In this document: piece after piece, positions 11,172-54,953 of the stretch
Position numbering within the stretch: position 1 is the first letter of the stretch
Layout: the number at the start of each line of letters is the position of its first letter
NCBI GenBank assembly: GCA_036522875.1
Contig: DATDEZ010000102.1
Span: 797-64,796, forward strand
Source: Gemmatimonadales bacterium
GTDB taxonomy: Bacteria; Gemmatimonadota; Gemmatimonadetes; Gemmatimonadales; GWC2-71-9
DNA: 64,000 nucleotides
Direction: 5' to 3'
The notes under the pieces: model-generated
Told to the model about the DNA's origin: nothing
Databases searched by the model: none
Seen by the model: only the letters and a program-made list of their open reading frames with translations
Position numbers and translations under genes: made by a program

Positions 11172-12665
11172 ATGACCGCTCCTCGATTCAAGAACTTCAT
11201 CGCGGGCGACTGGGTCGCCCCGTCCACCGGTGAGTACTTCGACAATCGCAACCCCGCCGACTGGAACGACCTGATCGGCGAGTTTCCGCGCTCGGGCGCC
11301 GCCGATCTGCAACGCGCGATCGCATCGGCGAAGCGCGGGTTCGCGCAGTGGTCGAAAACGCCCGCGCCGATTCGGGGGCAGGTGTTGCAGCGGGTCGGGC
11401 AGCTGCTCGTCGAGCGCAAAGCGGACGTCTCGCGCGCTATGACGCGCGAAATGGGCAAGGTGCTCGCCGAGACGGGCGGGGACGTGCAAGAGGGCATCGA
11501 CACGGCGTTCTACGCGGCGACGGAGGGCCGGCGGCTCTTCGGCCGCGTCGTGCCGTCCGAGCTGCGGAACAAGTGGGCGATGAGCTACCGGCGGCCCATC
11601 GGCATCGCCGGTTTGATCACGCCGTTCAACTTCCCGCTCGCGATTCCCACCTGGAAGATGTTCCCGGCGCTCCTGTGCGGGAACGCGGTGATCTTCAAGC
11701 CGGCCGAAGACGTCCCGCACACGGCGCACCTGCTCGTGGAGATTTTGCTGGAGGCGGGATTGCCGCCCGAGGTCGTGCAGCTCGTGCACGGGCAGGGCTC
11801 GGTCGTGGGCCGCGCGCTCGTCGAGCATCCCGACATTCCGGTGATTTCCTTCACCGGCTCGACCGAAACCGGATCGACGATCGGCGCCACGTGCGGCAAG
11901 ATGCACAAGCGGCTGTCGCTCGAGATGGGTGGCAAGAACGCGATGATCGTGATGGACGACGCCGACCTCGACCTGGCGCTCGACGGCGTCTTGTGGGGCG
12001 CGTTCGGCACGACGGGCCAGCGCTGCACCGCGACGAGCCGGCTCATTCTCCACGAGAAGATCCACGACAAGTTCGTCCAGCTCGTGACCGACCGGGCCGC
12101 GCGACTGCGCCTCGGCCCGGGACTCGACGACAAAAGCGAGGTCGGGCCGCTCATTCACGAGGAGGCGCGGCAGAAGGTCGCCGAATACGTCGACATCGCA
12201 AAGCGCGAAGGCGCGAGTGTGGCGCTGGGCGGAAAGATTCCCCAGGGCGACAAACGCCTGGAATGCGGCTGGTTCTACGAGCCGACGGTGCTCACCGGCG
12301 TGAAGCCGGGGATGCGGGTCGAGCAGGAGGAGATCTTCGGTCCCGTCCTGGCGGTCGTGAAGGCCAAGGACCTCGCCGAGGCGATCCAGATCAACAACGG
12401 CGTGAAGTACGGTCTCTCGAGCTCGCTCTACACCCGCGACGTGAACGGCGCCTTCCGGGCCATGACCGATCTCGATACCGGAATCACGTACGTCAACGCG
12501 CCGACGATCGGCGCGGAGGCGCACCTGCCGTTCGGGGGCGTGAAGCAGACGGGCAACGGCCACCGCGAAGGCGGCTGGGAGGTCTACGACTTTTACTCGG
12601 AGACGAAGACGATCTACGTCGACTACTCCGGCACGCTGCAGCGCGCGCAGATCGATACCGAGTAG
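11172..12665 (+). CDS. NAD(P)+-dependent aldehyde dehydrogenase
   Basis: 497 aa with the ALDH Glu box (LEMGGKNAMIV) and Cys box (FGTTGQRCTATSRLI). Confidence 0.9.
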   Translation: MTAPRFKNFIAGDWVAPSTGEYFDNRNPADWNDLIGEFPRSGAADLQRAIASAKRGFAQWSKTPAPIRGQVLQRVGQLLVERKADVSRAMTREMGKVLAETGGDVQEGIDTAFYAATEGRRLFGRVVPSELRNKWAMSYRRPIGIAGLITPFNFPLAIPTWKMFPALLCGNAVIFKPAEDVPHTAHLLVEILLEAGLPPEVVQLVHGQGSVVGRALVEHPDIPVISFTGSTETGSTIGATCGKMHKRLSLEMGGKNAMIVMDDADLDLALDGVLWGAFGTTGQRCTATSRLILHEKIHDKFVQLVTDRAARLRLGPGLDDKSEVGPLIHEEARQKVAEYVDIAKREGASVALGGKIPQGDKRLECGWFYEPTVLTGVKPGMRVEQEEIFGPVLAVVKAKDLAEAIQINNGVKYGLSSSLYTRDVNGAFRAMTDLDTGITYVNAPTIGAEAHLPFGGVKQTGNGHREGGWEVYDFYSETKTIYVDYSGTLQRAQIDTE

Positions 12666-24266: not shown

Positions 24267-25786
24267 CGCTCGACGCCGTCGGGCTCGAGGTCATGGCCAA
24301 CGCGTTCGCGTCCATCGCGGAAGAGATGGGCCTGGTCCTGGTGCGGAGCGCCCTGTCCCCCAACATCCGCGAGCGGCGCGACGCCTCTGCCGCTCTCTTC
24401 GATGCGGACGGCGAGATGATCGCGCAAGCCGCGCACATCCCCGTGCATCTCGGCGCGCTGGGCGACGCCGTGGCCGCGGTGCGCGCGCTCGCGCCGCAGC
24501 CCGGCGAGCTCTTCCTTCTCAACGATCCCTATGCGGGTGGAAGCCATCTTCCGGACCTCACGCTCATCGGCGCAATCGACGTGGACGGACGCGTGGGGGG
24601 CTACAGCGTGGTCCGCGCGCACCATTCCGATATCGGTGGGATGACGCCGGGCAGCATGCCGGCCGGCGCGCGCGACCTCTACCAAGAAGGCCTCGTGATT
24701 CCGCCCACGCGGTACACGCCGGAGCTCGAGCGCCTCGTTCTGGCGAACGTCCGCACGCCGGTCGTGCGCCGCGGCGACCTCGCCGCCCAGCGTGCCGCGG
24801 TCGAGCGCGGTGCGGAAGGATTGCGCGCGCTCGCCCACCGTTACGGCCGCGAGCCGCTGAACGAAGCGGCGCGAGAGCTGCTCGCGTACGCGGAGCGGCG
24901 AACGCGCGCGATGCTGCGCGCCATGCCGGTCAGCGCGGCCGCGACCGATTACCTGGAGGGCGACGGCGTAACCGGCGACGACATCGCGATCACGGTCCGC
25001 GTGACGATCGCCGACGGCATCTTTCACGCCGATTTCGCAGGGACGAGCGCGGCGGTGCAGGGAAACGTGAACTGCCCGATCGCGGTGACGCGGTCGGCCG
25101 TGCTGTTCGTGGTCCGGACGCTGCTGCCCGACGATGTGCCCATGAACGGCGGCGTCTCCCGCGCGATTCGGGTGAGCGCGCCGCGCGGCGCGCTCGTCAA
25201 CGCGGAGCCGCCGAGCGCGGTGGCGGCGGGGAACGTGGAGACGTCGCAGCGGATCGCGGACGTGGTGTTTCGCGCGCTCGCGGCCGGCGGCCGCGATGTG
25301 CCCGCCCTGGGGCAAGGCACGATGAACAATCTGACATTCGGAGGATCTCGGAGCCCGGAGTCAGGAGCTTGGACGTACTACGAAACCATTGGTGGTGGAC
25401 AAGGCGCGAGCCGTGGCGCGAATGGTCCGTCCGGCGTGCACGTCGGGATGTCGAACACGCTGAACACGCCGATCGAAGTCCTCGAGCTCGAGCATCCGCT
25501 CCGCGTGCGCACGTACGCGCTGCGTCGGGGCAGCGGGGGACGAGGGACGTGGGACGGCGGCGATGGCGTGGTGCGCGAGTTCGAAGCGTTGGCGCCGGCG
25601 GAAGCGACGTTGCTGACGGAGCGGCGGCGACACGGGCCGGCAGGCGGTTCCGGCGGGGCGGCCGGGGCGCCGGGCACCAATCAGCTCAATGGCGTGGCGC
25701 TGCCGTCGAAGGTCACGCTGCGTCTGTCCGCGGGGGACATTCTCCGCATCGAAACCCCGGGCGGTGGCGGCTGGGGAAGGGAGTGA
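24263..25786 (+). CDS. Hydantoinase B/oxoprolinase family protein (HyuB-like)
   Basis: FLLNDPYAGGSHLPD and GNVETSQRI motifs. ATGA overlap with hyuA. Confidence 0.85.
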   Translation: MTLDAVGLEVMANAFASIAEEMGLVLVRSALSPNIRERRDASAALFDADGEMIAQAAHIPVHLGALGDAVAAVRALAPQPGELFLLNDPYAGGSHLPDLTLIGAIDVDGRVGGYSVVRAHHSDIGGMTPGSMPAGARDLYQEGLVIPPTRYTPELERLVLANVRTPVVRRGDLAAQRAAVERGAEGLRALAHRYGREPLNEAARELLAYAERRTRAMLRAMPVSAAATDYLEGDGVTGDDIAITVRVTIADGIFHADFAGTSAAVQGNVNCPIAVTRSAVLFVVRTLLPDDVPMNGGVSRAIRVSAPRGALVNAEPPSAVAAGNVETSQRIADVVFRALAAGGRDVPALGQGTMNNLTFGGSRSPESGAWTYYETIGGGQGASRGANGPSGVHVGMSNTLNTPIEVLELEHPLRVRTYALRRGSGGRGTWDGGDGVVREFEALAPAEATLLTERRRHGPAGGSGGAAGAPGTNQLNGVALPSKVTLRLSAGDILRIETPGGGGWGRE

Positions 25787-25787
25787 C

Positions 25788-26144
25788 ATGACCTGGTTTC
25801 TGATTTCGTTGTTGGGCCTGTTCGCGGGCGTCGTATCGGGGCTGTTCGGCGTGGGTGGCGCCGTCGTCATCATTCCCGGCCTCGTGCTGATCGGGCGATT
25901 GCAGCAACACACCGCGCACGGCACGTCGCTGGCTGCGCTGCTCTTGCCTGTGGGCTTACTGGGCGTCTTGCAGTACGCCAAGCGCGATCAGGTGCACTGG
26001 GGGTTCGCGGCGGTCATTGCCGGCGGTCTGCTCATCGGCGCCTACTTCGGCGCTCGGCTCGCCGTGTCGATTCCCGATGTGACGCTGCGCCGCATGTTCG
26101 GCGGATTCCTGCTGCTGATTTCGGTGAAGCTCTTGTTCTTCTAG
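25788..26144 (+). CDS. Half-size TauE/SafE (DUF81) family membrane protein (118 aa)
   Basis: GLFGVGGAVVIIPGL and a C-terminal FGGFLLLISVKLLF. About 4 TM, roughly half the usual 250 aa. Confidence 0.6.
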   Translation: MTWFLISLLGLFAGVVSGLFGVGGAVVIIPGLVLIGRLQQHTAHGTSLAALLLPVGLLGVLQYAKRDQVHWGFAAVIAGGLLIGAYFGARLAVSIPDVTLRRMFGGFLLLISVKLLFF

Positions 26145-28096
26145 GGGGCGTCGGCTTCGCTCACCTGGCGCTGAAAGACTTTCGCGTCGATGAACAGCTT
26201 GAAGAGATCGGCGTCCAGCTGGCCCTCGGTGACTTCCGTCGTGAGGATGTCGAGGGCGCGGTCGTTCGAGACGGCGCGCTTGTACGGACGGTCCTGCGCC
26301 GTGAGCGCGTCGTAGATGTCGCTGATCGTCATCATGCGCGTCTGAAGCGGGATCGCATCCGCGGTGATGCGCCGTGGGTAGCCGCGCCCGTCCATCTTTT
26401 CGTGATGCCCATAGGCGATGAGCGGGATCTGCTGCAGCTCGCGCGTCCACGGAATGCGCTGCAGGAACTGATACGTGTGCGTCACATGACTTTCGATCTC
26501 GTGGCGCTCGGCGTCGTCCAGGCTGCCTTTGCGGATCGTGAGGTAGCGCACCTCGTCGGGTGAGAGAAACGGCTCGGTGTTGCCGTCGAGCCCGCAGTAG
26601 GTCCGATGCGACCACGCCTTCAGCTCATCGAAGCTCCCATCCGGCAGAATCGTCGGCTCGTTCGCTTGCAGCACGATCTCCAGGAAGCGATCGAGATCGG
26701 CGAGCTCCGCCTTGTGCGCGTCCTCCAGCTCCTTGACGAAGCCGTCGTAGCCGCGCTTGCCGTTCTCCTCCAGGAATTCCGCGCGCTTGCGCCAGAACTC
26801 TCGTTCCGCGGTGCGGCGAATGAAGGCGTGTCGATGCCGCACGAGACTCAGGTCGGAGGGATAGAGCTTCTTCGCCTTGATCAGCACCTGCTCGCGCACG
26901 CCGACCTTGCCGAAATCGTGGAGCAGGGCGGCGTAGCGGATCTCCTTCAGCTGCTCGCGCGAGAACTTCACCAATCGGTAGGGGCCGTCCGCCGCGCGAT
27001 CGACGACCTCGGCGAGACCGACCGTCATGCCGGCGACCCGGCCCGAGTGACCGTACGTGGTCGGGTCGCGCTGTTCGATCGCGTGGACCGCCGCCAGCAC
27101 GAACCCCTCGAACAGCTTTTCGATGTCCTCGTACAGGCGGCCGTTCTCGATGGCGACGGCGGCCTGTCCCGCCAGCGCGGTCACCAGCTCGACGGTGCGC
27201 TTGGAGTACGGCACGACCTGCTTGTCCACGTCGGCCGGCGTCGCGAGCACCGCCTCGAGATTGCGCTTGCGGTTGATGAGCTGCAGCACGCCGATGATCT
27301 CGTCCTTGTGATCCTTCATCGGGATCACGAGCATCGACTTGGTGCGATAGCCGTAACGCTCGTCGAACGAGCGGTTGATCGTGTACTCGACGTCCGGCGG
27401 CAGGAAGTACGCGTCGTCGATGACGAGCGGATCGCCGGTGACGGCGCAGTAACCCGCGAGGCTGCCGCGGTCCACCGGAATCGTGTGCTCGACGAAAGGC
27501 GCCTCCGGCTTCGAGTACGTCTGCGCCAGCCGGAAGCGCAGCCGCTTGTCGCCGTTCGCGTTTACTTCGACAAGATACAAGCTGCCGGCGTCCGACTGCG
27601 TGATGCGGCGCGACTGCGTGAGAATCAGATCGAGCAGCGTCTTGATGTCGCGCTCGGTGCCGAGGGCGACGCCGATGCGCGTCAGCTCGCCGATCTCGCG
27701 CGCGCGCTGCGCGGCCTCCGCGCGCGCCCGCGCGGTCTCGGCGCGGGCGGCGGCCTCGCGGAATCCGGCGCGCACGGCCAGGAGCAGCCGGCGCGGGCTC
27801 GTGGGATACGTCAGGAAGCCGGACAGGAATTCCGTCGGCAAGCCTTCGGGGACCTCTGTTTCGCCCTCGCGCCCCAGCGCGACGATTCCGCCGCCCGCGT
27901 CGACGAACGACCGCATGATGTCTACGGGGAACCGCGAGCGGCTGTCGGCGTCCAGCAGGAACACGGTCGGCCGGTCGTCCGCAACGACCAGCTCCTTGGG
28001 CTGGTGCACGGCGCGCGCTTCCACCTGCGCCGTCTTGAGCGCCGGGTCCACGCCGTCCGAGCGCCACTGCGGCGCGTGCAGGAGCAGATACCTCAC
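26141..28096 (-). CDS. Receiver-like / GAF / HD-GYP three-domain protein (putative cyclic dinucleotide phosphodiesterase)
   Basis: GAF region (SDAGSLYLVE...MLVIPMKD...IGVLQLINRK). HD (YGHSGRVAGM...ALLHDFGKVGV) and GYP (GHHEKMDGRGYP...ISDIYDALTAQDRPYK). GTG 28096 overlaps the mlaD TGA. Confidence 0.85.
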   Translation of the reverse strand: MRYLLLHAPQWRSDGVDPALKTAQVEARAVHQPKELVVADDRPTVFLLDADSRSRFPVDIMRSFVDAGGGIVALGREGETEVPEGLPTEFLSGFLTYPTSPRRLLLAVRAGFREAAARAETARARAEAAQRAREIGELTRIGVALGTERDIKTLLDLILTQSRRITQSDAGSLYLVEVNANGDKRLRFRLAQTYSKPEAPFVEHTIPVDRGSLAGYCAVTGDPLVIDDAYFLPPDVEYTINRSFDERYGYRTKSMLVIPMKDHKDEIIGVLQLINRKRNLEAVLATPADVDKQVVPYSKRTVELVTALAGQAAVAIENGRLYEDIEKLFEGFVLAAVHAIEQRDPTTYGHSGRVAGMTVGLAEVVDRAADGPYRLVKFSREQLKEIRYAALLHDFGKVGVREQVLIKAKKLYPSDLSLVRHRHAFIRRTAEREFWRKRAEFLEENGKRGYDGFVKELEDAHKAELADLDRFLEIVLQANEPTILPDGSFDELKAWSHRTYCGLDGNTEPFLSPDEVRYLTIRKGSLDDAERHEIESHVTHTYQFLQRIPWTRELQQIPLIAYGHHEKMDGRGYPRRITADAIPLQTRMMTISDIYDALTAQDRPYKRAVSNDRALDILTTEVTEGQLDADLFKLFIDAKVFQRQVSEADAP

Positions 28097-29010
28097 GGCT
28101 TGGCGCCCACCGTGCCGCGGCCGCTGTCGGCCGCGTGGGCGGAATCGCGTTGCACCGGGGGCAGCGGCTTCACGCCGGTGAGCGCCCGGAACGGCCGCCG
28201 CGACATCTGGTCGACGAAGTTGTTGAGCTGCCGCGAGGCCTCGGTGAGGTTCGCGACCGTCGCCCGCAGGTCGCTGCGGTTCTCGCTCGCGAGCGAGTGC
28301 GCCTCGCGGGCGAGGCTGTCGAGGCGCAGCAGCAGGCGGTTCGTGTTGGCGACCGCGGTCGACACCGAGTCGGCGAGACCGCGCTGCGAGAAGCGGTTCA
28401 CCATCGAATCGAGCCGGCCCATCGTCGACGCCACGCCGGTCAGCGTGCGCTCGACGTCGGGCGTGACGTCGCGCAGCGTGGACTGCACGCGCACGAGCGT
28501 CTGCGTCGCGGTTCGTACCATCTCCTGCACGCGTTGCGAGAGCTGGTCGGCGACCTCGGCGACGGCGTCGAGCGCGTTGCCCTTGCGGTGCGAATCGAGC
28601 GTGTCACCGGCATGCAGATAGGCGCGATGGCCGCGGATCGAATCGGGCAGGATCAGGCGGATCGAGACGGCGGGCGAGATCTGACTCGCCTGGACCAGGT
28701 CGGCCCGCGTGCCGATCGGCAGCTGCAGGCTCGAGCCGTCCTGGAACCGCTCCTTCACGGACATTCTGGCGACGAACGAAATGCGGCGCGTCAGCGAGTC
28801 CACGCGCGGCGAGATGCCGGTGACCTGCCCGACGTCGAGTCCTTCGATCACGACCGCGGTCCCCGGGGAAATCCCGTCGGCGCTCGCCACGCGCAGAAAG
28901 AGATCATAGCGGCGCTCGCCCCAACCGCTGGTCGCGATGAGGGCGCCGATCACGAGTGCAATCGTGCCGACGATGAACAGTCCGACGTAGAAGTCCTGCC
29001 GCGTTTCCAC
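28093..29010 (-). CDS. MlaD/MCE-domain protein
   Basis: N-terminal TM (FYVGLFIVGTIALVIGAL), MCE fold (LRVASADGISPGTAVVIEGLDVGQVTGI), long helical C-terminus. Confidence 0.8.
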   Translation of the reverse strand: METRQDFYVGLFIVGTIALVIGALIATSGWGERRYDLFLRVASADGISPGTAVVIEGLDVGQVTGISPRVDSLTRRISFVARMSVKERFQDGSSLQLPIGTRADLVQASQISPAVSIRLILPDSIRGHRAYLHAGDTLDSHRKGNALDAVAEVADQLSQRVQEMVRTATQTLVRVQSTLRDVTPDVERTLTGVASTMGRLDSMVNRFSQRGLADSVSTAVANTNRLLLRLDSLAREAHSLASENRSDLRATVANLTEASRQLNNFVDQMSRRPFRALTGVKPLPPVQRDSAHAADSGRGTVGAKP

Positions 29011-29040
29011 CCGTCCCTCGTCCCCGTCCGCCCGGCTCGC

Positions 29041-29739
29041 TCAGACCGTCTCGAGCTCGAGCACGCCCGCGCGCGTCAGCCGGTACACGTGATCGACGCG
29101 ACGCAGGATGATCGGCGGAATCTCCTGGCCGGTGATGAAAATCGTGCGCCGCGCGCCTTCGGCCGACTCGCCGCCGCGCGCGATCTCCAGCAGCTCCGAG
29201 GCGACGCGCGCCGTGAGCCCGTCGAACGGCTGCTCCAGCACCAGCAGGGCGGGGTCGAACGCGATCGCCCGCGCCAGCGCCGCCCGCCGCCGTTCCTCTT
29301 CATTGGCCTGCGCCGGCCGCAGCGCCGCCGCGCCCGTGAGTCGCAACGCCGTCAGCATGACGGTGACGCGGCCCTCGATATCGCGAGGGCTCGCGCCGCT
29401 GCCGAAGCGCAACGGCAGCGCCACATTGTCACGCAGGGAAAGATTTTGCAGTAGACCGTCGCCGGCCGGAAGGTATCCCACGCGGCGACGGAACGCTAAT
29501 CGCTCCGGCTCGCGGAGCCCGGCGATGACCGTGCCGAACACGAGCGCGCGGCCCGCCGCGGGGCGCTCCAGGCCCAGCGCGTATCCGCCCAGCAGGCCCA
29601 CGCCCGAATCCTCGTCTCCGAGCACGGCCACGGTGCGCCGCTCCGGCACCTCCAGCGAAAAGGGCGCCGAGGCCTGGCGCGCGATCGGAATCGTTTCGAA
29701 TGCCAGCGGCGTGGGGTGGGAGGGGTGTGCGGGAGTCAT
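29041..29739 (-). CDS. MlaF-like ABC nucleotide-binding-domain homolog with all catalytic motifs degenerate (pseudo-ATPase)
   Basis: ABC-NBD layout is recognisable (RRRVGYLP..., RRAALARAIAFDPALLVLEQPFDGL). Walker A reads GDEDSGVG, the signature reads ANEEE, Walker B reads LLVLEQ, and the H-loop His is Gly. Confidence 0.65.
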   Translation of the reverse strand: MTPAHPSHPTPLAFETIPIARQASAPFSLEVPERRTVAVLGDEDSGVGLLGGYALGLERPAAGRALVFGTVIAGLREPERLAFRRRVGYLPAGDGLLQNLSLRDNVALPLRFGSGASPRDIEGRVTVMLTALRLTGAAALRPAQANEEERRRAALARAIAFDPALLVLEQPFDGLTARVASELLEIARGGESAEGARRTIFITGQEIPPIILRRVDHVYRLTRAGVLELETV

Positions 29740-29742
29740 CGG

Positions 29743-30510
29743 TCAGGCCAGCGCGACGAAGAGTGCCGAGCACAGAAAGACGCCGACGAGCGCGGCGACG
29801 ACCGCGCGGCTGGCCGCGATCGGGATCTCGGTTGACGCGCGGCGCACCGACAGCCCGAAGTAGCTGGGCACGACGCCGACGATCGCGCCGAACGCGAGCG
29901 CCTTGAACACGGTGAGCCAGACGTCGCGGTTGCTCAGCGACTGCAGCACGATTTGGAAGTAGCGCGGTCCCGGCAGCCCGTTGAAGCGCGCGGCGGCGAA
30001 GCCCGCCATGATCGCGACGAGATCGAACAACACGAGCAGCGCGAACACACTCACGAGCGAGCCGAGGAAGCGCGGCAGGACGAGGTACTGCTTGGGATCG
30101 ATGCCGATCGCCTCGAGGGCCCGCACCTCGCCCATCACCTGGTTGGTCGCGAGCTCCGCGGCGATCGCGGTGCCGGAGCGGCCGACGACGACGAGCGCCG
30201 TGAGCAGCGGACCGAGCTCGCGCACGATCGCGACGACGATCAGCGTGCCGATGTAGTCGGTCGCGCCGAAGCGGCCCAGCTCGCGCGTGGCCTGGGAGAT
30301 CACGAGAAACGAGAGAATGCCGGACAGCAGCGTGACGAGACCGACGGCGTTGAGCGCCGTGAAGCGGACCTGCGCGACCGCGATGCGGAACGAGACGGCG
30401 CGGCCGGCCGCGGTGAGCCGGAAGGCCGCGCGCAGGGCGCCAAAGCCGAAGCGCGCCAGCGCTCCCAGGCGGGAGAGCCGGCGCGCCGTCGACTTGCCGA
30501 GTCGCGTGAT
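29743..30510 (-). CDS. MlaE-family ABC transporter permease
   Basis: VAIVRELGPLLTALVVVGRSGTAIAAELATNQVMGEVRALEAIGIDP is the MlaE signature. Homology continues upstream of the first canonical start (GTG 30303) to about 30510. The 5' end is placed at ATC 30510-30508 and is tentative. Confidence 0.7.
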   Translation of the reverse strand: MTRLGKSTARRLSRLGALARFGFGALRAAFRLTAAGRAVSFRIAVAQVRFTALNAVGLVTLLSGILSFLVISQATRELGRFGATDYIGTLIVVAIVRELGPLLTALVVVGRSGTAIAAELATNQVMGEVRALEAIGIDPKQYLVLPRFLGSLVSVFALLVLFDLVAIMAGFAAARFNGLPGPRYFQIVLQSLSNRDVWLTVFKALAFGAIVGVVPSYFGLSVRRASTEIPIAASRAVVAALVGVFLCSALFVALA

Positions 30511-30518
30511 CGGGTTCG

Positions 30519-31232
30519 TTACGACGCCTTGACCCGCTGCAGGCTTTCCTGCGCCTCAGCGTAGTTGGGGAAGATGTCGATCGCGTGCTGGAACATCTCC
30601 GCCGCCTTCGTCTTGTCGCCGCGGTCGGAGTACAGCAGGCCGCGCGAGTAATACGTCAGCGCTTCGGTCGGTACCTGGCGACCCATCCGCTGGTCGGACG
30701 CCTGGCGCTGCAGGGCCGGCAGGCTCACGTCCTTCATCAGCTGTGTCGAGATGTTGCGGATCATGTCGAAGAGATGATCGCGCTGCATCTTGTCGGACTC
30801 GGTCTTCACGATCTCCCCCGTCTCGACGTTCACGAGCCTCACGTCGATGCGGAAGTCGCCGTAGAAATCGATGAAGGTGCCCATGACGGCGTAACGGGCG
30901 CCGACGAGCTTGCCGACGCGCGCGGCCGTCTGCGGATCGACCCGGCCCGCGGTGCCGAGGTTCTGCTCGTCGAGCAGGCGCTGGACTTCCTGGCGCTCCA
31001 CGACGCGCGCCGCGGGATTCTGCGCCAGCTCGGAGATCATCATGCCGGCGATGCCGCGCTCCAAGGCGTCGAAGTCTTCTTTGCCCTGGCCGTAGGAGCC
31101 GCCGTTGTTGAAGGGGAACACGGCGATGCCTGGCCGCGTGTCCTGGGCGCGCTGCTGCGCTCCCAGAAGGGCCGGAACCAGGCTAAAAACCGTCAGCACT
31201 GCACGCGCGCGCATAACTACTCCTCGGGTCAC
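30519..31232 (-). CDS. Secreted CsgG/LpoB-like domain protein with C-terminal TPR
   Basis: Signal peptide (MRARAVLTVFSLVPALLGAQQ). GIAVFPFNN...MISELAQ...VVERQEVQRLLDEQ...GARYAVMGTF resembles CsgG/LpoB-fold modules. TPR at the end (ALTYYSRGLLYSDRGDKTKAAEMFQHAIDIFPNYAEA). ATG 31214 with a GAGGAG SD is an alternative to GTG 31232. Confidence 0.55.
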   Translation of the reverse strand: MTRGVVMRARAVLTVFSLVPALLGAQQRAQDTRPGIAVFPFNNGGSYGQGKEDFDALERGIAGMMISELAQNPAARVVERQEVQRLLDEQNLGTAGRVDPQTAARVGKLVGARYAVMGTFIDFYGDFRIDVRLVNVETGEIVKTESDKMQRDHLFDMIRNISTQLMKDVSLPALQRQASDQRMGRQVPTEALTYYSRGLLYSDRGDKTKAAEMFQHAIDIFPNYAEAQESLQRVKAS

Positions 31233-32107
31233 AGGGTCACCTTCATGCCTTCGCGCGCGGCATCGACGTCGAGCGAGCCGCGCTTCTTCGCGAACTTGCG
31301 GGCATCCGCCAGCAAGTCATCCATCTCCTTGTCGGCGTGCTCGGGCTCGTGATGAAACAGCACGAGCTGCTTCGCGCCGGCATCCTGCGCCAGGGTCACC
31401 GCTTCCTCGTACGTCGAATGTCCCCAGCCGCGGTGCTGCTCCAGCTCCTTCGGCGTATACATCGCGTCGTGAATCAGCAAGTCGACGTCTTTCAAAAACG
31501 CGACGAAATCGTGTCGCCAGTTCTTGCCGACGTCGTATTCGCCGCCGGTGCCCAGCTCATTGTCCGTCACGTAGGCCATACTCGGCCCGCCACCAGTGGC
31601 GGGCGTGAGCCGGAACCCCAGCGTGGTGCCCGGGTGCCGCAGCTTCATCGTCCGCACGCGGAAGGCGCCGATCGAGAAGTCGTCCGCGTGCACCTGCTGC
31701 ACCGTCAGCGATGCCGAGAGCGCGTCGAGCGGCACCGGAAACACTGCGGGGTCCATTTGCTGGCGCAGGATCGCCTCCAGCGACGCGGTCCCTTGCCGTG
31801 ATCCCCAAATGCGCACCGTGTTGCCCGGCGCGAAGAACGGCTTGAAATGCGGCAGCCCCTGAATGTGATCCCAATGGGCATGCGACAGCAGGATTTCGAC
31901 TTTCGCGGCGCCGTTTTGTTTCGCGACCAGATCGAGCCCGAGGGCTCGAATCCCCGTTCCCGCGTCCAGCACCACCAGCTGGCCGCCAGCGCCCTCCACA
32001 GCCACACACGGCGTGTTGCCGCCGTAGCGCGCGGTGGCGGCTCCAGGAGTCGGAATGCTCCCCCGGGTTCCCCAGAAGGTCACCGTGTAGGCCATGCGTG
32101 TCGGCAA
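31229..32107 (-). CDS. MBL-fold metallo-hydrolase
   Basis: HxHxDH motif (LLSHAHWDHIQG), later DNE and HH(E) ligand regions. Substrate not inferable from sequence. Confidence 0.75.
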   Translation of the reverse strand: MPTRMAYTVTFWGTRGSIPTPGAATARYGGNTPCVAVEGAGGQLVVLDAGTGIRALGLDLVAKQNGAAKVEILLSHAHWDHIQGLPHFKPFFAPGNTVRIWGSRQGTASLEAILRQQMDPAVFPVPLDALSASLTVQQVHADDFSIGAFRVRTMKLRHPGTTLGFRLTPATGGGPSMAYVTDNELGTGGEYDVGKNWRHDFVAFLKDVDLLIHDAMYTPKELEQHRGWGHSTYEEAVTLAQDAGAKQLVLFHHEPEHADKEMDDLLADARKFAKKRGSLDVDAAREGMKVTL

Positions 32108-32182
32108 CGAAGCTCGCGCTAAGTTACTGGTAATTAGTGATGTAGAACAAGCTTGGGCCTCACCCGCACGTCGTGACGCGCC

Positions 32183-32860
32183 TCACGCGCCGCCACGTCC
32201 CGCCGCTTGCTCCAAGGCGCCGCGATCTTTGATCACGATGTCCTTGCGACTGACGTCGATCATGCCCTTATCGACGAGCTCGCGCATCGTGCGCGACACG
32301 GTCTCGCGCGAGCTGCCGATCATCTGGGCGATGGTATGGTGGGTCAACCGGCGCGTGATGCGCTGGCCGTCGGTTTCGTCGGCGAGGTCGAGCAGGAGCT
32401 GGGCGACGCGCCCGTGGACGTCGAGCAACACGAGGCTGCCGACTTTTTCGTCCACGCGCCGCAGCCGGCGCGAGAGCTCGCGGAGCAGCGCGAGCGCGAT
32501 GCCGGCCGAGTGCTCGAGGATGCCCTGAAAATCTTCGCGCCGCAGTACGAGCAGCGTCGAGTCCTCCATCGCGATCACGTGCGCGGAGCGCGGCTCATCG
32601 TCGATGAGCGCCATCTCGCCGAAGAACTCGCCTTCGCCGAGCACCGACAGAATCACCTCGCGGCCGTCTTCGCCGATGAGCACGACTTTGACTTGCCCCT
32701 TGGCGACGACGTAGAGCGCGTCACCCGGATCGTCTTCGAACAGGATGACGGAGTTTTTGGGATAGGCACGGTCGCGCGCAACTTCCACCACGCGCTGCAG
32801 ATCGGTGGGGGCGAGCTGGCTGAACAACGGGACCTTCTGCAGCACGTCTGCTGGGGACAC
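32183..32860 (-). CDS. Crp/Fnr-family transcriptional regulator (cNMP-binding domain plus HTH)
   Basis: cNMP-binding beta-roll ([13 protein letters not shown]...RSAHVIA) and C-terminal HTH ([27 protein letters not shown]). Confidence 0.85.
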
Positions 32861-32934
32861 GCCAACACTCTGTTTAGGTCGCGCTCAGCTTACGGCTTCG
32901 GCGGGGCGGTGTCAATTGAACCGAGCCCTGAGCC

Positions 32935-32964
32935 TTGCCCCCAAGTTGGTGCGCCAGCTATATT
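32935..32964 (+). promoter_or_regulatory. Candidate sigma-70-type promoter for rpmE-prfA-prmC (TTGCCC-18 nt-TATATT)
   Basis: Hexamers read directly in the 147-nt divergent intergenic region. AAGGA SD sits 8 nt before GTG 33008. Confidence 0.35.
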
Positions 32965-33007
32965 TCCGCACTTCATTCCGTCCGACTTTCAGGCAAGGAT
33001 ACGAGCA

Positions 33008-33220
33008 GTGAAACCCGGGATTCACCCCAAATACCAGCGGGCCACCGTCCAGTGCGCGTGCGGCAACACGTTCATCACGCGCTCGACCACGCCCGTGATC
33101 CACGTCGAAGTCTGCGCCCAGTGCCATCCGTTCTTCACGGGCAAGCAGAAGCTCATGGACACCGCCGGCCGAGTCGAGCGCTTCCGCCAGAAGTACGGAA
33201 ACAAGGCCGGAGCCAGCTGA
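33008..33220 (+). CDS. rpmE: 50S ribosomal protein L31 (Zn-ribbon, Cys-containing form)
   Basis: [22 protein letters not shown]...[19 protein letters not shown] start. Confidence 0.9.
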
Positions 33221-33224
33221 CCCT

Positions 33225-34283
33225 GTGGACGACAGACTCCGCCAAGCGCTCGCGCGGGCGGAGGAGGTCGCCCGGCAGTTGGCCGACCCCGCCACCGCGC
33301 GGAATCCAGCAAAACTGAAGCAGCTCGGCCGCGAGCACGCCCAGCTCGAGGCCATTCGTCTCACCCACCAACGGATGGAGCGCCTCGAAGCCGAGCTCGC
33401 CCAGGCCCGCGAGGTCCTCGGCGACAAGGATCCCGAGCTGTCGCAGCTCGCGCGATCCGACGTCGAGCGGATCGAGCCGCAGATCGAGCGGCTGGAAGAC
33501 GAGCTCGACGAGCTGCTCACGCCCAGCGATCCGTTCGACGACCGTGACGCGATTGTCGAAGTCCGCGCCGGTACCGGCGGCGACGAGGCCGCGCTGTTTG
33601 CCGCCGACCTCTTCCGCATGTACACGCGCTTCTGCGAGCGGCGCGGGTGGAAAGTCGAGATCCTCTCGCTCTCGGAAGGCACACTCGGCGGACTCAAGGA
33701 AGCGGTGTTCGCCGCGCGCGGGCCGAAAGCCTACGGCACGCTCCGCTACGAGTCCGGCGTGCACCGCGTGCAGCGTGTTCCCGTGACTGAGCAGCAGGGA
33801 CGCATCCACACCTCCGCGGCGACGGTCGCCGTTCTGCCGGAAGCCGAAGAAGTCGACCTCAAGATCGAAGACAAAGACCTGCGGATCGACGTGTTTCGCT
33901 CCGGCGGCCCGGGCGGCCAGAGCGTCAACACGACCGACAGCGCGGTCCGCGTCACGCACCTGCCGACCGGCCTCGAAGTGAAATGCCAGGATCAGAAATC
34001 GCAGCTCCAGAACAAGATCAAGGCGCTCGAGATCCTCCGCTCGCGCCTGCTCGATCGGATGGTCGCCGAGCAGGAAGCGGCCCGCGCGCGCGATCGGCGG
34101 GCGCAGGTCGGGACGGGCGACCGCTCGCAGAAGGTGCGGACGTACAACTTTCCGCAAAACCGCGTCACCGACCACCGCATTCATTTCACGACGCACAACA
34201 TCGACGAAGTGATGGACGGCAAGCTCGACGATCTGATCGGCGCGCTGAAAGAGGCGCAGGAAAAGGAGCGCGCCGGTGTCTGA
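33225..34283 (+). CDS. prfA: Peptide chain release factor 1
   Basis: The RF1-type tripeptide region ([15 protein letters not shown]) and GGQ motif ([13 protein letters not shown]). Confidence 0.95.
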
Positions 34284-49549: not shown

Positions 49550-52500
49550 TTAGAACGTCGGACCTAAACTGATGGTCCAATAGGACCGCTTGTGGGGCCG
49601 GTCGAGCGGCTTCGTGTAATCGAGCCGCATGATCATGAGTCCAAAAACGTTGGCCCGGATCGAGCCGCCCCAGCTGCGCAGCGGCGTCCGGACCAGCTCC
49701 GGATCCTCGCTCGCGCCGCGATTCCACTTCACGATGCTGTTGTCATTCCACGCCATGCCGATGTCGTAGAACAGGGCGCCCTCGATCGGGGGGAAGCCGA
49801 CGGGCAGGAATCCGAGCACGAGGCTGCGCGTGAGCGGGAAACGGAGCTCGACGTTGCCGACCGCGATCTTCGAACCGATCAGCTGATCGAGCTGCGCGCA
49901 CGATCCGGTAGTCGTGTTTCCCGGATCGGCGACGCACTCGTTGTTGCGGATCGAGCCGGCCGTGTAGCCGCGAATCAACTCCGTGCTGCCCAGGAACACG
50001 GGGAAGCGATCGGCGTCGCGCCCGAAGCGACCGAACATGAAACCGCGGAACGCGAGCGTGAAGGGCCGCGCGAACAGGTAGCGGCGATAGTCGACGAGCC
50101 CGGCCGTGAATTTCCACGAGCCGATCGCCGGCGACACCGACAGGCGCGAGCGGCTGCCGGCAAACGGGCCGACCCAGCCGAACAGCGTGTTGTCGTGCAC
50201 GTGCGCGATCGACGGCTGGATGTACGATGACGACGGTCCGCTGCCCGTGACGAGCCGCTCGTCGATCGGCACAGAAACGAGTTGACCGGTCGCCGTCGTG
50301 TCGGTCCGGTACAGCGTCTGCAGCGCGAGCGTTGCCTCGGCGATGTCCACGGCGTGGAAGCCGAGCTCGACGCGGTTGAAGCGGCTGAACGGATACGAGG
50401 ACTCGATGAACGCATCGCGAACCACGAACCGACGGATGCGCGTCGAGAACACGTCGAGGGTGTCGCCCGGGCTGTTCGGATCTTCGGCCCGCGTCCAGTC
50501 ACTGCCGCCGTAGAAGTACAACGGATCTTGCGAAAAGCCGCTCGCCCAATTCAGTCGATGCGTCTGGTTGACGTAGACGCCGAGGATCTGCGCCTCGCTG
50601 ATGCGACCGTTGATCGAGCCCGCGAGCAGGAGCGAGTGGTTGCCGAGGATGTCGGACAGGGCGATCGCGGTCCCACCGAAAAATCCGCGGCCGAAGTTGT
50701 CGCGCTCATAGCCGACGGTCGGGCGCACGACGTAATCGGCGGTGAACCGCACGCGGTACGGCTTGAATGAAAACTCCGCGGTGTCCGGCAACGCGAGCGA
50801 TGCCGAATCGAGCAGCTGGCGCACCGTCACGGCCGGCGCGACGGCGGACGACTCGGCCGGAGCCGGGGAGGCGGACGGCCGGAATCCCTCGGCGGACCGG
50901 TAGAACGAGGCGGACTGACCGCCGTTCGCGACTGCCGCGGCACCCGCGGCCGTCGCCGCCACGGTTCCCGTGCCGGCGGGCAGCGGCAGCAGCGTGTCTC
51001 GCGCTTCCGCTTCGAGCAGCGTGACCACCGGAGCCGTGTTCGGGCCGCGATAGGGCGCGCGCTTCAGCGAGCGCGGGTTCTCCAGCGAGTAGACGCTGTA
51101 CTGGCCGTCCTCGTAATAGACGAACGCCATGCGATCGGCCTGCGGCGCCCAGCTCAACACGGGGGACAGCGGCGTGATGCCCTGAACGCCGGTGAACATG
51201 TTGGTGAGCTGATAGATCTCGCTGTCGGCGAAATCGTACAGGAAGACGTTGGCGACGCCCGTGCGATCGGAGACGAACGCCAGCGACTTCCCGTCGGGTG
51301 CCCAGACCGGATTGATGTTCTTCCCGACTTCCATGTGACCGAGCAGCTCCATCGTGCCCGTGTCGAGATGGTACAGCGCGATCCGCAGATTGCCGAAGCG
51401 GAGCAGATCGAAGTCGGTTGCGCCGCCGCGATCGGTCACGAACGCGATCGTCTTGCCGTCGGGCGACCAGGCGGGGTGCAGGTCGGCGTACTTGTCGTTG
51501 GTCAGACGACGCATGCCCGTCCCGTCGCGATTGATCACGAACAGATCGGTGAAACCGTTGTGGAAGCCGGTGAACACGAGCTGCTGCCCATCCGGCGACC
51601 ACTGCGGCGTCTGCAGCCCCGAAAGGCCGACCTGAATGCGACGGTCCTCGCGGTTCTTCTTGACGTCGAGGATCACGAGGTCGTCACGATTCTTGCGCTT
51701 CGCGGCGATCGCGAAGTAGCGCCCGTCCGGCGAAAAGGCGCCCGCGGAGTTGATGAACCGCAGACTCTCATAATTGTTGTTGAGCGTGGACTTCACGAGC
51801 CGCTGCTTCACGCGTCCCGTTTCGGCGTCCGCGAGCCAGAGGTCGACGAAGAAGCCGCCTTGATCGCCGAAGAACGCGATGCTGCGGCCGTCCGGCGTCA
51901 GCGCGGGCGCGAGGAAGATCCGGCCGTTGGACCGCCGCCGCGTGAGCGTCGGCTGCGCGATGCGACGCGCGCGGTAGTGGTCGCCGAGCTGCGGCAGGAA
52001 GGTCGTCTGGATCGCGTCACGCCAGTCGTCCGAGAGCTGCTCGAGCGTGCGGCCCGTGGCGTGCTTGAAGGCCGGCTCGATGCCGGAGGTCACCGAGGTC
52101 TGCAGGATCTCGCCGATGACGTCGTCGCCCCACTTTTCGCCGATGTAGGCCCACAACCCGTGACCGAAGCGGTAGGGGAAAATGCTCGGGTCGTCCGTCA
52201 TCTCTTCGATCGACGGCAGATGCCCCTCGAGCGCGGCATCGCGCAGCCACATCGCCGTTTCGGGATTGATGGGGCCAAGCGACAGATACTCCGCCATTCC
52301 TTCCATGAACCACAGCGGCGGATTCACGTTGACGAGCGTCTGCACGCCTGCACCGGGATGGCCGCGGCTGAACACGTCGTACTGGAATTGGTGCACCATC
52401 TCGTGCTGCAGGACGTGCTCGAACTCGGCGTAGGAGCCGGTGAACGGCATCACGGCGCGATGCTTGTAGAACTCCGTGACGCCGCCCAGACCTTCGCCCG

Positions 52501-53164: not shown

Positions 53165-54953
53165 TCTGGAAGAACACCCCCCAGGCGCCGATGCCGGCGT
53201 GCGCGGCGATCACCGGAGTGATCGGGGTCACCAAACACTGTATGGGTCGGTAGCGCGACACGAGCTCAACGCGCAACGCTTCCGCGAATTCCGGGATGTC
53301 GCCGTGCACGACGCCCATGCGGAGGGCGCGCGGCCGCGGCGTGAGGGCCTTGTCGAGCAGCTCGAGGACGCGGCGCCGGGCCGCCTCACGGCCGCGCGAG
53401 CGCCCCACGGGCTCGATCTTACCTTCCATAGTAAGCGCCATGATGGGTTTGAGATTGAGCTTCGTGCCCAGCCAGGCCTTGCCGCGGCCCACCCGTCCGG
53501 AGCGGACCAGCCGCTCGAAGTTGTCCACCGTAAAGAAGCCTCCCGACTGCCCGCGCACCCGCTCGAGCTCGCGTACGATCGCCGCGCGCTCCCATCCGGC
53601 TGCAGCAAGCTCTACGCCACGTATCACGAGGAAACCTTCGCCGAGCGAGGCGCTGCGACTGTCGACGACGGTCACGCGCGTGGCGTCGAAGCGCTTCGCG
53701 GCGGCTTCGGCATTGCCGTGCGTGCCCGACAGCGCGCTCGACACGACCACGGCAATCACATGCTCCCCGGCGCGTGCCGCATCCTGGTACGCGTCGGTGA
53801 AGGCCTGCGGCGTCGGCTGCGAGGTGCCGGCGTCGAGACCGGCGCGCATGCGGCGGAAGAACTCGCCCGCGGAGAGCTCCAACCGGTCGCGGTAGGCGCG
53901 GTCGTCCACGATCAGCTGCATCGGCACGAGCCCGACGTCGTACTGGAGCACCAGCTCGTCGGGCAGGTCGCAGGCGGTATCGCTCACGAACGCGATCGGC
54001 CGGCGGGTCTGGAGCGCCTGGTGCTGGGCGCGCATGTCGTCGGCCTTGGTCGATTCGAGCGCGCCCCACGTCGCGGCGAGCTGAAAGACGGCGTCGGGAG
54101 CATCCGTATGGACGTGCGCCTTGAGCAGGTCGCCGGTCGACAGCACGACGATCGAGCCGCCGTGCGCGCGCAGCGCGCGACGGACGTCGGCCGCGTCGGG
54201 CAGCGACGGGGAGCGGACCATCAGCTCGGTGCAGTAGTGGTAATCGCGGTCGGCTTCGACGTCGGTCTGGGCGGCCGCGTTGGATGCCGCGCCCATCCGG
54301 TCCACGGCGCCCTCGGCGATCTGTCCTTCTTCGATGAGGCGTTTGACGCCGTCGAGCAGCCGGACGAAGCCTTTCGCGCCGGCATCCACGACGCCCGCGC
54401 TCTTCAGCGCGGCGAGCAGCTCCGGTGTGCGCGCGAGGGCTGCTTCGGCGCGCGTGACGATGCGACTCATGAAGACGCGCAGGTCCGACTCGCCGCGGGC
54501 ATGGCCCGCTTCCTCGGCGGCCTCGCGCGCCACGGTGAGGATCGTGCCCTCCACCGGCTCATCCAGCGAGGAGCGCAGTCGCTCGAAGCCGATGCCGATC
54601 GATGCGGCGAGCTCGCGGGCGTCGATGCGCAGCCGCTGGCCGATGCCCTCGCGGAATCCGAGGAGGAACTGCGACAGCATCATCCCGGAGTTGCCGCGGG
54701 CGCCGCGCACGCTCGCCTGGGCCATCGTTTCCGCGACGTAGGGCAGGGGCAGCGAGGCGTCACCGTCGCCGAGATCGCGCAGCGCGCCGGCGACCGCGCG
54801 CAGGGTGAGCCACATGTTCGTCCCCGTGTCGCCGTCGGGGACGGGAAAGACGTTGATCCGATTCAACTCGTCGCGGCCGGCCGCCACCCAGTCCGCCGCG
54901 GCCAGCAGCGAGCGGCGGAAGCGCGACCCGTCGACGTACGCGATCGCGACGAT
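53154..54953 (-). CDS. Fusion protein: FakA/YloV-type DhaL (DAK2) domain plus central domain fused to a bona fide DegV (FakB-like) fatty-acid-binding domain
   Basis: N-terminal half: NVFPVPDGDTGTNM, ARGNSGMMLSQF, YHYCTEL, KAHVHT. C-terminal half: IAFVSDTACDLP, GTSQPTP, SSALSGTHGNA, VVDSRSASLGEG, RVGRGKAWLGTKLNLKPI. The first canonical start is GTG 54887, but the homology (VDGSRFRRSLLAAADWV) extends to ATC 54953, which follows an AAGGAG SD. Confidence 0.75.
   Translation of the reverse strand: MVAIAYVDGSRFRRSLLAAADWVAAGRDELNRINVFPVPDGDTGTNMWLTLRAVAGALRDLGDGDASLPLPYVAETMAQASVRGARGNSGMMLSQFLLGFREGIGQRLRIDARELAASIGIGFERLRSSLDEPVEGTILTVAREAAEEAGHARGESDLRVFMSRIVTRAEAALARTPELLAALKSAGVVDAGAKGFVRLLDGVKRLIEEGQIAEGAVDRMGAASNAAAQTDVEADRDYHYCTELMVRSPSLPDAADVRRALRAHGGSIVVLSTGDLLKAHVHTDAPDAVFQLAATWGALESTKADDMRAQHQALQTRRPIAFVSDTACDLPDELVLQYDVGLVPMQLIVDDRAYRDRLELSAGEFFRRMRAGLDAGTSQPTPQAFTDAYQDAARAGEHVIAVVVSSALSGTHGNAEAAAKRFDATRVTVVDSRSASLGEGFLVIRGVELAAAGWERAAIVRELERVRGQSGGFFTVDNFERLVRSGRVGRGKAWLGTKLNLKPIMALTMEGKIEPVGRSRGREAARRRVLELLDKALTPRPRALRMGVVHGDIPEFAEALRVELVSRYRPIQCLVTPITPVIAAHAGIGAWGVFFQNED

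Follow-up and report, generated by a model that had tools for sequence, protein, structure and literature searches.

A conserved Mla-type locus of Gemmatimonadales with an MlaF-like pseudo-ATPase, an overlapping HD-GYP gene and a CRP-type box

Relation to described systems

Mla and other MCE systems are central to outer-membrane lipid homeostasis, and both their energisation and the direction in which they move lipids are still debated. The locus described here lies in a 64-kb stretch of a genome from Gemmatimonadales, an order with soil bacteria (assembly GCA_036522875.1, contig DATDEZ010000102.1, positions 797 to 64,796), which is referred to as the window. Seven co-directional genes on its minus strand, at positions 26141-32860, were recovered by an open reading frame (ORF) scan combined with Pfam and NCBIfam searches. 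In the direction of transcription, they encode a Crp/Fnr-family regulator, a phosphodiesterase of the metallo-β-lactamase (MBL) fold, a secreted CsgG/LpoB-like protein with a TPR, an MlaE permease, a degenerate MlaF (pseudo-MlaF, psF), a long MCE protein (MlaD) and a protein with pseudo-receiver, GAF and HD-GYP domains. This set, its order and its coordinates bear out the original prediction, which a model had made from the letters of the window.

The minimal MlaEFD system with a long MlaD and without MlaA, MlaB and MlaC is a published and widespread type, described for Veillonella parvula (Grasekamp et al. 2023, PMC10665443). The window resembles it in the order MlaE–MlaF–MlaD, in the lack of MlaA, MlaB and MlaC, in its internal start–stop overlaps and in an elongated MlaD, which has 305 amino acids (aa) compared with 183 in E. 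coli. The original prediction had singled out the missing MlaA, MlaB and MlaC; they are indeed missing from the window, but this is no peculiarity, since it is the published state of minimal MlaEFD (PMC10665443). Unlike the Veillonella system, the window has an MlaF without any ATPase motif and an MlaD that does not reach the 419 aa of its Veillonella counterpart and shows no sign of an outer-membrane β-barrel. Furthermore, its putative operon adds the MBL phosphodiesterase, the secreted CsgG-domain/TPR protein, the HD-GYP enzyme and an upstream CRP box.

Among MCE envelope systems, PqiABC and LetAB/YebST function with no dedicated nucleotide-binding domain (NBD) that hydrolyses ATP. PqiABC and LetAB rely on PqiA/LetA-type membrane partners and multi-MCE proteins, whereas the window combines MlaE and an ABC architecture with a dead NBD. 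Like the mycobacterial Mce1/Mce4 proteins, the window MlaD scores best against TIGR00996 and has a helical C-terminal extension. However, an Mce operon holds genes for two YrbE permeases and six Mce proteins and depends on an active ATPase in trans, while the window encodes one permease, one MCE protein and a dead NBD in cis. With the MlaFEDB complexes of E. coli and A. baumannii (6xbd, 7cgn, 7d06), the locus shares the MlaE permease, the MlaF-like NBD fold and an MCE subunit anchored by a transmembrane helix, but it lacks the STAS partner MlaB, the C-terminal "handshake" extension of MlaF and functional ATPase motifs. NBDs that have lost catalytic residues and are still part of a transporter are known from TAP1/2, CFTR, PatAB and TM287/288 (PMC9541285). 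In transporters of the TAP1/2 type, the degenerate site keeps ATP binding and one site is fully active, whereas the NBD of the window is presumably homodimeric, with both sites lost.

The last protein of the locus resembles PmGH of Persephonella marina (4mcw) in having a GAF domain followed by an HD-GYP domain with all metal-binding and GYP motifs, and its receiver-like N-terminal domain recalls RpfG-type proteins. It differs from both in combining an extra pseudo-receiver with an insertion of about 100 aa in the HD-GYP domain and a start–stop overlap with an MCE gene. Control of cyclic di-GMP (c-di-GMP) phosphodiesterase genes by cAMP-CRP is known from other bacteria, for example in the cases of Shewanella LrbR (PMC12415220) and Klebsiella MrkJ (PMC5025149). 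As in these cases, a CRP-family regulator and a TGTGA-N6-TCACA-like site lie upstream of a c-di-GMP phosphodiesterase gene in the window; unlike them, the putative Crp-regulated unit also holds an MCE module and an MBL phosphodiesterase. Literature searches returned nothing relevant on a degenerate MlaF or on an Mla system coupled to HD-GYP or GGDEF enzymes, in agreement with the original prediction, whose author was aware of no described Mla system with an HD-GYP partner.

The MlaE–psF–MlaD module and its HD-GYP neighbour

Judged by its sequence, psF (29041-29739, minus strand, 232 aa) is a pseudo-ATPase: the NBD fold is preserved, but canonical binding and hydrolysis of ATP would be lost. 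Aligned residue by residue with the solved MlaF chains, it has a valine in place of the Walker A lysine (GDEDSGVG), an alanine in place of the Q-loop glutamine, ANEEE at the position of the LSGGM/LSGGQ signature, Glu-Gln in place of the Walker B Asp-Glu (LVLEQP) and a glutamine in place of the H-loop histidine (ITGQE). Neither a GK[ST] Walker A motif nor an xSGGx signature occurs in any of the 81 sequences of the psF family, and all 81 have also lost the Q-loop, Walker B and H-loop residues. The degeneration of MlaF noticed in the original prediction is therefore real, and the loss of ATPase motifs is complete. The residues that replace these motifs are nearly invariant within the family (GDEDSG, ANEEERRR, LEQPFDGLT, ITGQE). 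The idea that psF is a decaying pseudogene was rejected on these grounds, as the ORF is intact in the 81 sequences and the substituted motifs do not vary.

The fold of psF is supported by PF00005 (35 bits, cut-off 25), by phmmer matches to MlaF chains (1e-16, residues 27-221) and by an AlphaFold2 model built from a 33-sequence alignment, with a predicted local distance difference test score (pLDDT) of 89.4. The model superposes on MlaF in 6xbd, 7d06 and 7cgn with TM-scores of 0.81-0.84 and also on LolD, MetN, FtsE and MceG (0.8-0.84), and the Mce1 structure 8fed is among its fold matches. As the NBD fold is kept in this model, psF presumably still clamps onto the MlaE dimer. Its constraint is similar to that of its neighbours, with a mean distance of 0.52 compared with 0.44 for MlaE and 0.99 for MlaD. 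Among 1.84 billion representative proteins, the psF family forms a sharp island: 13 matches fall below E = 1e-30, after which only generic ABC scores follow.

The MlaE gene extends on the minus strand from 29743 to about 30510-30523 and encodes a protein of about 255-259 aa. Its product matches PF02405 almost from end to end (181 bits, profile positions 2-211 of 212) and scores 133.6 bits against TIGR00056, which is under the curated cut-off of 212; it is therefore a member of the family, but a divergent one. ATG, GTG and TTG are absent from mlaE upstream of residue ~70, and the full-length Pfam match requires the residues before that point. The conserved N-terminus begins at a GTA, ACG or ATC codon that adjoins or overlaps the TAA stop codon of the upstream gene (30510-30523), which suggests that mlaE may be started by termination-reinitiation on a non-canonical codon. 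A GTG is present 9-15 nucleotides (nt) upstream of the aligned mlaE position (window region 30303-30558) in over 60 more distant relatives. In the clade of the window (13 loci), this GTG has become a GTA, CTA or CTG that overlaps the upstream stop (G-TAA, C-TAA, C-TAG, CTGA). A programmed frameshift that fuses the CsgG-like protein to MlaE was considered and rejected, as a protein secreted to the periplasm would then continue into the N-terminus of MlaE, which is cytoplasmic.

MlaD (28093-29010, minus strand, 305 aa) matches PF02470 marginally (26.9 bits, cut-off 25.1) and the Mce family TIGR00996 with 1.8e-9. It consists of an N-terminal transmembrane segment (hydrophobic helix 8-30), an MCE domain at about residues 35-95 and a coiled-coil-like C-terminal extension of about 150 aa. 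Residues 145-270 match coiled-coil families, and among solved structures there is a weak match to the MCE domains of LetB/YebT. The scores of MlaE, psF and MlaD against the corresponding NCBIfam equivalogs are all far under the cut-offs. Searches with the proteins of the cluster as queries revealed neither a further paralog of MlaE, MlaD or the ABC protein nor any MlaA, MlaB or MlaC in the 64-kb window; Pfam annotation likewise revealed no MlaA, MlaB (STAS) or MlaC in the cluster or its 20-kb flanks, in the window and in related loci.

The stop codon of mlaD overlaps the start codon of the HD-GYP gene (26141-28096, minus strand) in a GTGA. The encoded protein (HD_5, 1.7e-31; GAF, 6e-16) comprises a cytoplasmic pseudo-receiver (residues 1-110), a helix, a GAF domain (146-320) and the HD-GYP domain (321-651). 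Its closest solved relative is the GAF–HD-GYP protein PmGH (4mcw, 9e-34), and it also matches the cyclic GMP–AMP (cGAMP) phosphodiesterase V-cGAP3 (5z7c). Its LHDFGK and GHHEKMDGRGYP segments align to both structures, and the GHS, HDFGK, HHE..G.GYP, ISD..DAL and DRPYK motifs are invariant in 61 orthologs. By these alignments, the catalytic motifs of a c-di-GMP/cGAMP phosphodiesterase are intact. Relative to PmGH, the HD-GYP domain is split by an insertion of about 100 aa at residues ~416-520 (window 26537-26851). This insertion partly repeats a flanking "L-K-x-x-K-L...H" segment, and its conservation is 0.57 compared with 0.74-0.80 in the catalytic parts.

The original prediction had called the N-terminus of this protein receiver-like. 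The strand and helix pattern of a receiver is present, with a conserved D49 after the third strand, and the best structural match of the domain profile is the receiver-like domain of CpaE (E = 0.0026; CpaE and CpxR receivers together, E = 0.003-0.5). The phospho-acceptor pocket is missing, with neither an acidic pair (the sequence reads LLLHP) nor a conserved lysine. From its sequence, the domain is at best a pseudo-receiver.

To assess the conservation of the locus, GTDB species were represented by one genome each and scanned with motifs specific to the family, which yielded 80 loci. All of them are labelled Gemmatimonadota, mostly Gemmatimonadales, and psF identity ranges from 93% down to 48%. 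The seven genes are complete and colinear in 54 of the 80 loci, and 23 more lose genes only to contig ends. The last three are explained by contig ends or fragmented long-read assembly, so that no gene is missing from any locus. The original prediction had proposed gene-neighbourhood analysis of MlaD/HD-GYP adjacency and the degenerate MlaF; the two occur together in all 80 Gemmatimonadota loci. Two loci on contigs of long-read metagenome-assembled genomes (L065, L085) carry the HD-GYP gene and several of its neighbours in fragments; unrelated genes on the same contigs are fragmented as well, and this looks like assembly frameshift error rather than gene decay.

The gene junctions are tight. 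In the window, the 4-nt GTGA overlaps that had been predicted at 31229-31232 (MBL/CsgG-like) and 28093-28096 (MlaD/HD-GYP) agree with the ORF coordinates, and the remaining junctions span 3-30 nt. The exception is the gap between crp and the MBL gene. The original prediction gave it as 75 nt, with all other junctions at 30 nt or less; the latter is correct, and the gap measures 75 nt from the ORF boundary and 87 nt if translation of the MBL protein starts at ATG 32095. This ATG is the likely true start, and a public gene call of 288 aa with 100% identity begins there. Across the loci, the median junctions are -3.5 nt for MBL/CsgG-like, an overlap for MlaE/psF, 14 nt for psF/MlaD and -4 nt for MlaD/HD-GYP. 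The first, second and last of these junctions are mostly overlaps, and the crp–MBL gap is kept at about 77 nt. The best conserved of the seven genes is crp (65-97% identity across loci), and the most divergent is mlaD (30-94%).

Crp, its putative box and the outer genes of the locus

The first gene of the locus (32183-32860, minus strand) encodes a Crp/Fnr-family regulator of 225 aa, with a domain for binding cyclic nucleoside monophosphates (cNMP; PF00027, cNMP_binding, 1.7e-29) and a Crp-type helix-turn-helix (PF13545, HTH_Crp_2, 1.7e-21). Its score against the NCBIfam CRP equivalog (134 bits) is under the cut-off of 266, and the protein is thus not an ortholog of the E. coli type. Because the phosphate-binding cassette (FGE...PRSA) is intact, binding of a cNMP is plausible.

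The CRP consensus is TGTGA-N6-TCACA, and GTGA-N6-TCAC is its core. Alignment of the crp–MBL gap across the loci revealed a palindrome of this form, GTGAGGCGCGTCAC, at or just after the stop codon of crp; in the window, it occupies 32173-32186 and overlaps the stop codon. The box is exact in 63 of 70 crp–MBL junctions, and the other seven have one mismatch. Over the 80 loci (about 1.1 Mb), 81 exact boxes were counted, of which 63 are located in this junction. The window itself contains four exact boxes, compared with 0.81 expected by chance, and an additional GTGA follows the palindrome at 32160-32163. The three other exact boxes of the window, two inside long ORFs (11841-11854 and 52440-52453) and one near ORF starts at 53.1-53.3 kb (53218-53231), could be further targets of Crp.

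The AT-richer gap between crp and the MBL gene holds a stretch that resembles a promoter at the consensus level, GTAACTTAG, and is conserved in 39 loci. The element of the window reads TTGTTC, 18 nt, TAACTT (32121-32150, minus strand). In a sub-clade of nine loci (L041, L045, L047, L050, L053, L055, L065, L075, L077), the sigma-70-like element is replaced by a near-consensus sigma-54-like TGGCAG-N5-TTGCA. All seven loci with a one-mismatch CRP box belong to this sub-clade, hinting that control of the putative operon may be altered there. Upstream of crp, a second promoter-like element was read from the sequence (TTGACA, 17 nt, TAAGCT; 32887-32915, minus strand), and it faces away from a promoter-like site on the plus strand directed towards rpmE (32935-32964).

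As the crp–MBL junction carries both a CRP box and a promoter-like element, the six downstream genes look like a Crp-controlled operon and crp like a transcription unit of its own. The seven-gene cluster of the original prediction therefore stands as a gene set, whereas as a single operon it probably has to be divided into crp and a six-gene operon. The same prediction supposed that second messengers set the activity or the expression of the module. Control of expression is supported by the conserved CRP-type box (63 of 70 exact), while control of transporter activity, or a contact of the HD-GYP protein with the transporter, would be a further, hypothetical step. An Rfam scan of 25500-33500 (E<=1) detected no riboswitch or other RNA family, and a terminator scan of the gene junctions gave nothing above shuffle expectation.

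The MBL protein (31229-32095, minus strand, 288 aa; the ORF extends to 32107) matches Lactamase_B_2 (5.8e-23) and carries the HxHxDH motif as HAHWDH. It aligns over its full length with the cyclic-nucleotide phosphodiesterase family NF041851 (E = 6e-16), with 58.6 bits compared with a cut-off of 400, and a precomputed assignment to PF23023 (Apyc1) is present on all 120 MBL homologs listed. In a Foldseek search with a model from a shallow alignment (pLDDT 73), the top matches were YhfI, BA1088 and RNase Z, and Apyc1 was found at rank 43. The protein is a candidate nucleotide-type phosphodiesterase of the RNase Z/YhfI/PhnP/Apyc1 branch, with a cyclic nucleotide as one candidate substrate. That it might be the RNase Z of the organism was rejected, as it reaches 83 bits against TIGR02651, where the cut-off is 293.

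The following gene (30519-31232, minus strand) encodes a 237-aa protein with matches to PF03783, LpoB and TPR_1. The original prediction had labelled it a lipoprotein. This label fails: the protein has a signal peptide, but no cysteine in its entire length and hence no lipobox, and its orthologs show type I signal-peptide cleavage sites (A-x-A|Q). It is therefore a secreted periplasmic protein. Its CsgG-like domain of about 135 aa resembles the periplasmic domain of CsgG and LpoB, and a single TPR follows at the C-terminus. PF03783 covers only profile positions 4-101 of 210, leaving no room for the barrel hairpins of CsgG, and the family profile matches CsgG structures weakly (E~0.002), over the periplasmic domain. 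The protein is thus not a CsgG channel.

Both ends of the cluster are flanked by genes on the opposite strand, namely rpmE, which is divergent from crp, and one convergent plus-strand ORF. The divergent block rpmE-prfA-prmC-ylbF-tmk-ctpB (window 32935-33220, continuing upstream to ~38000) is syntenic in most Gemmatimonadales loci, and a LolA-like gene is found a few kb beyond it in the relatives L081 and L085. The downstream flank is variable among the loci.

Pseudo-MlaF modules and second messengers

Many of the nearest relatives of psF outside its family are degenerate MlaF-like proteins too. Where their context is readable, they are part of modules of MlaE, psF and an MCE protein of ~300-360 aa. 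Walker-A-less MlaF-like proteins also accompany MlaE and MCE proteins of ~300 aa in further lineages known from metagenomes, so that such modules may extend beyond a single phylum. The members of a second pseudo-MlaF family fall into about 30 clusters (49-100% identity), and one member carries the NCBI label Gemmatimonadota; the family thus belongs at least partly to this phylum. Its psF is about 30% identical to that of the window and lies in a wholly different flank, and the two share the derived motifs LE[DQ]P at the Walker B site and T[GS]Q at the H-loop site. The block of this family is conserved and contains a divergent GAF-GAF-GGDEF gene, then the genes for MlaE, psF and MlaD, an AP-endonuclease-like protein and a cNMP-binding MscS-like channel, followed by a CHASE2 class III cyclase. 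It is found in L172 (5984-18837) and L173 (5947-18840), as well as in L086, L111, L114 and L126, and includes a FecR-like protein. In a third pseudo-MlaF family, the neighbour of mlaE is a divergent GGDEF-EAL gene. Of 80 MlaF-like loci sampled from metagenomes, 10 are Walker-A-less and 70 canonical; mlaE has a GGDEF gene directly upstream in three of the former and in none of the latter. The c-di-GMP enzymes linked to the psF of the window (HD-GYP) and to that of the second family (GGDEF) carry GAF domains. Two unrelated Walker-A-less modules, L088 (7153-10611) and L090 (7225-10496), each comprise MlaE, psF and an MCE protein of 320-360 aa and are followed by a gene for a 290-aa TPR protein, echoing the TPR on the secreted protein of the window.

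With a probability of roughly 50%, we read the locus as two units, in which a six-gene operon switched by cNMP-Crp encodes an ATP-independent MlaE–psF–MlaD complex functionally paired with c-di-GMP turnover. The gene crp would be expressed from its own sigma-70-like promoter, and its cNMP-binding product would bind the box and switch the synthesis of the products of the six genes, which are probably co-transcribed. The MlaE2-psF2-MlaD6 complex might then act in vivo as an ATP-independent conduit, presumably for lipids, or as a sensor of the state of the envelope. The long extension of MlaD may protrude into the periplasm, and the secreted CsgG-like/TPR protein could be a partner there. On the cytoplasmic face, the dead NBD platform would be functionally paired with c-di-GMP turnover via the co-translated HD-GYP enzyme, possibly through a physical link between the two proteins, and the MBL enzyme may feed back on the nucleotide signal.

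Several observations weigh against this two-unit reading. The upstream block rpmE-prfA-prmC-ylbF-tmk is likewise syntenic in most loci; part of the conservation of the cluster is therefore general collinearity within one order, and conserved adjacency alone is weaker evidence than it seems at first sight. A mirror-tree style test, in which partial correlations of pairwise distances in 35 loci were controlled for PrfA, PrmC and Tmk, gave moderate and unspecific values for psF and the CsgG-like protein (0.63) and for MlaE and MlaD (0.56), and a weak one for psF and the HD-GYP protein (0.13); the test is crude and shows no specific signal for this pair. The pseudo-MlaF modules L087, L088, L090 and L091 have no cyclic-nucleotide gene nearby, so that the association of pseudo-MlaF with such genes is recurrent, but not universal. 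Moreover, the three metagenome loci with an adjacent GGDEF gene are members of a single family and therefore do not represent independent events. No clear NKFDE motif for cNMP binding is present in the GAF domain of the HD-GYP protein, profile and fold searches place RNase Z, YhfI and PhnP above Apyc1 for the MBL protein, and the calls of promoters and CRP boxes are at the consensus level, with a sigma-54-like promoter in one sub-clade instead.

The first three of these observations are also what supports the main rival, an inherited juxtaposition of crp with the phosphodiesterase, an envelope MCE module and a stand-alone GAF–HD-GYP enzyme. These units would be adjacent through the conserved gene order of Gemmatimonadales, with incidental co-transcription and no specific coupling. 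That all 80 loci come from one phylum, and mostly from one order, is in keeping with it. However, the HD-GYP gene is always kept and usually overlaps the mlaD stop despite the variable downstream flank, and the six-gene unit opens with an exactly conserved CRP box. In addition, the second family, with its distant psF and different flank, is again surrounded by GGDEF, cNMP-binding and cyclase genes, and in the third a GGDEF-EAL gene adjoins mlaE. Juxtaposition alone is a serious explanation, but on balance an unlikely one.

That the substituted psF motifs are invariant implies that selection has favoured a new function at the former ATP site. Together with the repeated linkage to GAF-bearing c-di-GMP enzymes, this invariance would suit a transporter gated by second messengers, in which the former nucleotide site of psF, or a docked GAF domain or pseudo-receiver, binds c-di-GMP or a cNMP and drives or gates MlaE instead of ATP. 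This is decidedly doubtful, for the strong acidity of the former ATP site (DED, EEE) disfavours the phosphates of a nucleotide, and no known c-di-GMP binding motif was recognised.

Mycobacterial mce operons have no ATPase of their own and are supplied with one in trans by MceG, and many heterodimeric ABC transporters have one degenerate site. Following these precedents, and in line with the match of the psF fold to Mce1, a canonical ATPase encoded elsewhere could power MlaE, with psF as its degenerate heterodimer partner or as an assembly factor; but this is very improbable, as psF has lost both the Walker A lysine and the signature, so that each site of any such heterodimer would be incomplete (one without Walker A, one without signature) and no intact ATP sandwich site would remain, as psF is encoded at the MlaF position with a start–stop overlap with mlaE in most loci, which argues for a stoichiometric NBD, and as searches of the 64-kb window and of the 20-kb flanks around the 80 loci revealed no other ABC ATPase resembling psF.

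The two-unit reading, with an ATP-independent complex paired with c-di-GMP turnover, can be taken one step further. The dead NBD dimer might be the place where c-di-GMP enzymes with GAF domains dock and exert allosteric effects, the HD-GYP protein in Gemmatimonadales and the GGDEF protein in the sister family, and the complex, instead of being an energised transporter, could be a trans-envelope lipid sensor or a ligand-gated conduit. This extension is unlikely as it stands and is put forward as a tentative suggestion. If true, the lipid state of the envelope and the level of c-di-GMP would be directly coupled, and an ABC machine would have moved from ATP to second-messenger logic; the Walker-A-less MlaF modules of metagenomes might form a wider class, so far undescribed, to which it belongs.

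The locus represents a natural Mla-type system whose ABC architecture is under purifying selection across an order while all ATP motifs are gone, which makes it a ready-made test of an ATP-free MlaE/MCE core. The fixed pairing with an HD-GYP gene and the conserved CRP box, together with the GGDEF, cNMP-binding and cyclase genes around the sister family, point to a link, so far undescribed, that may connect envelope lipid trafficking with cyclic-nucleotide signalling.

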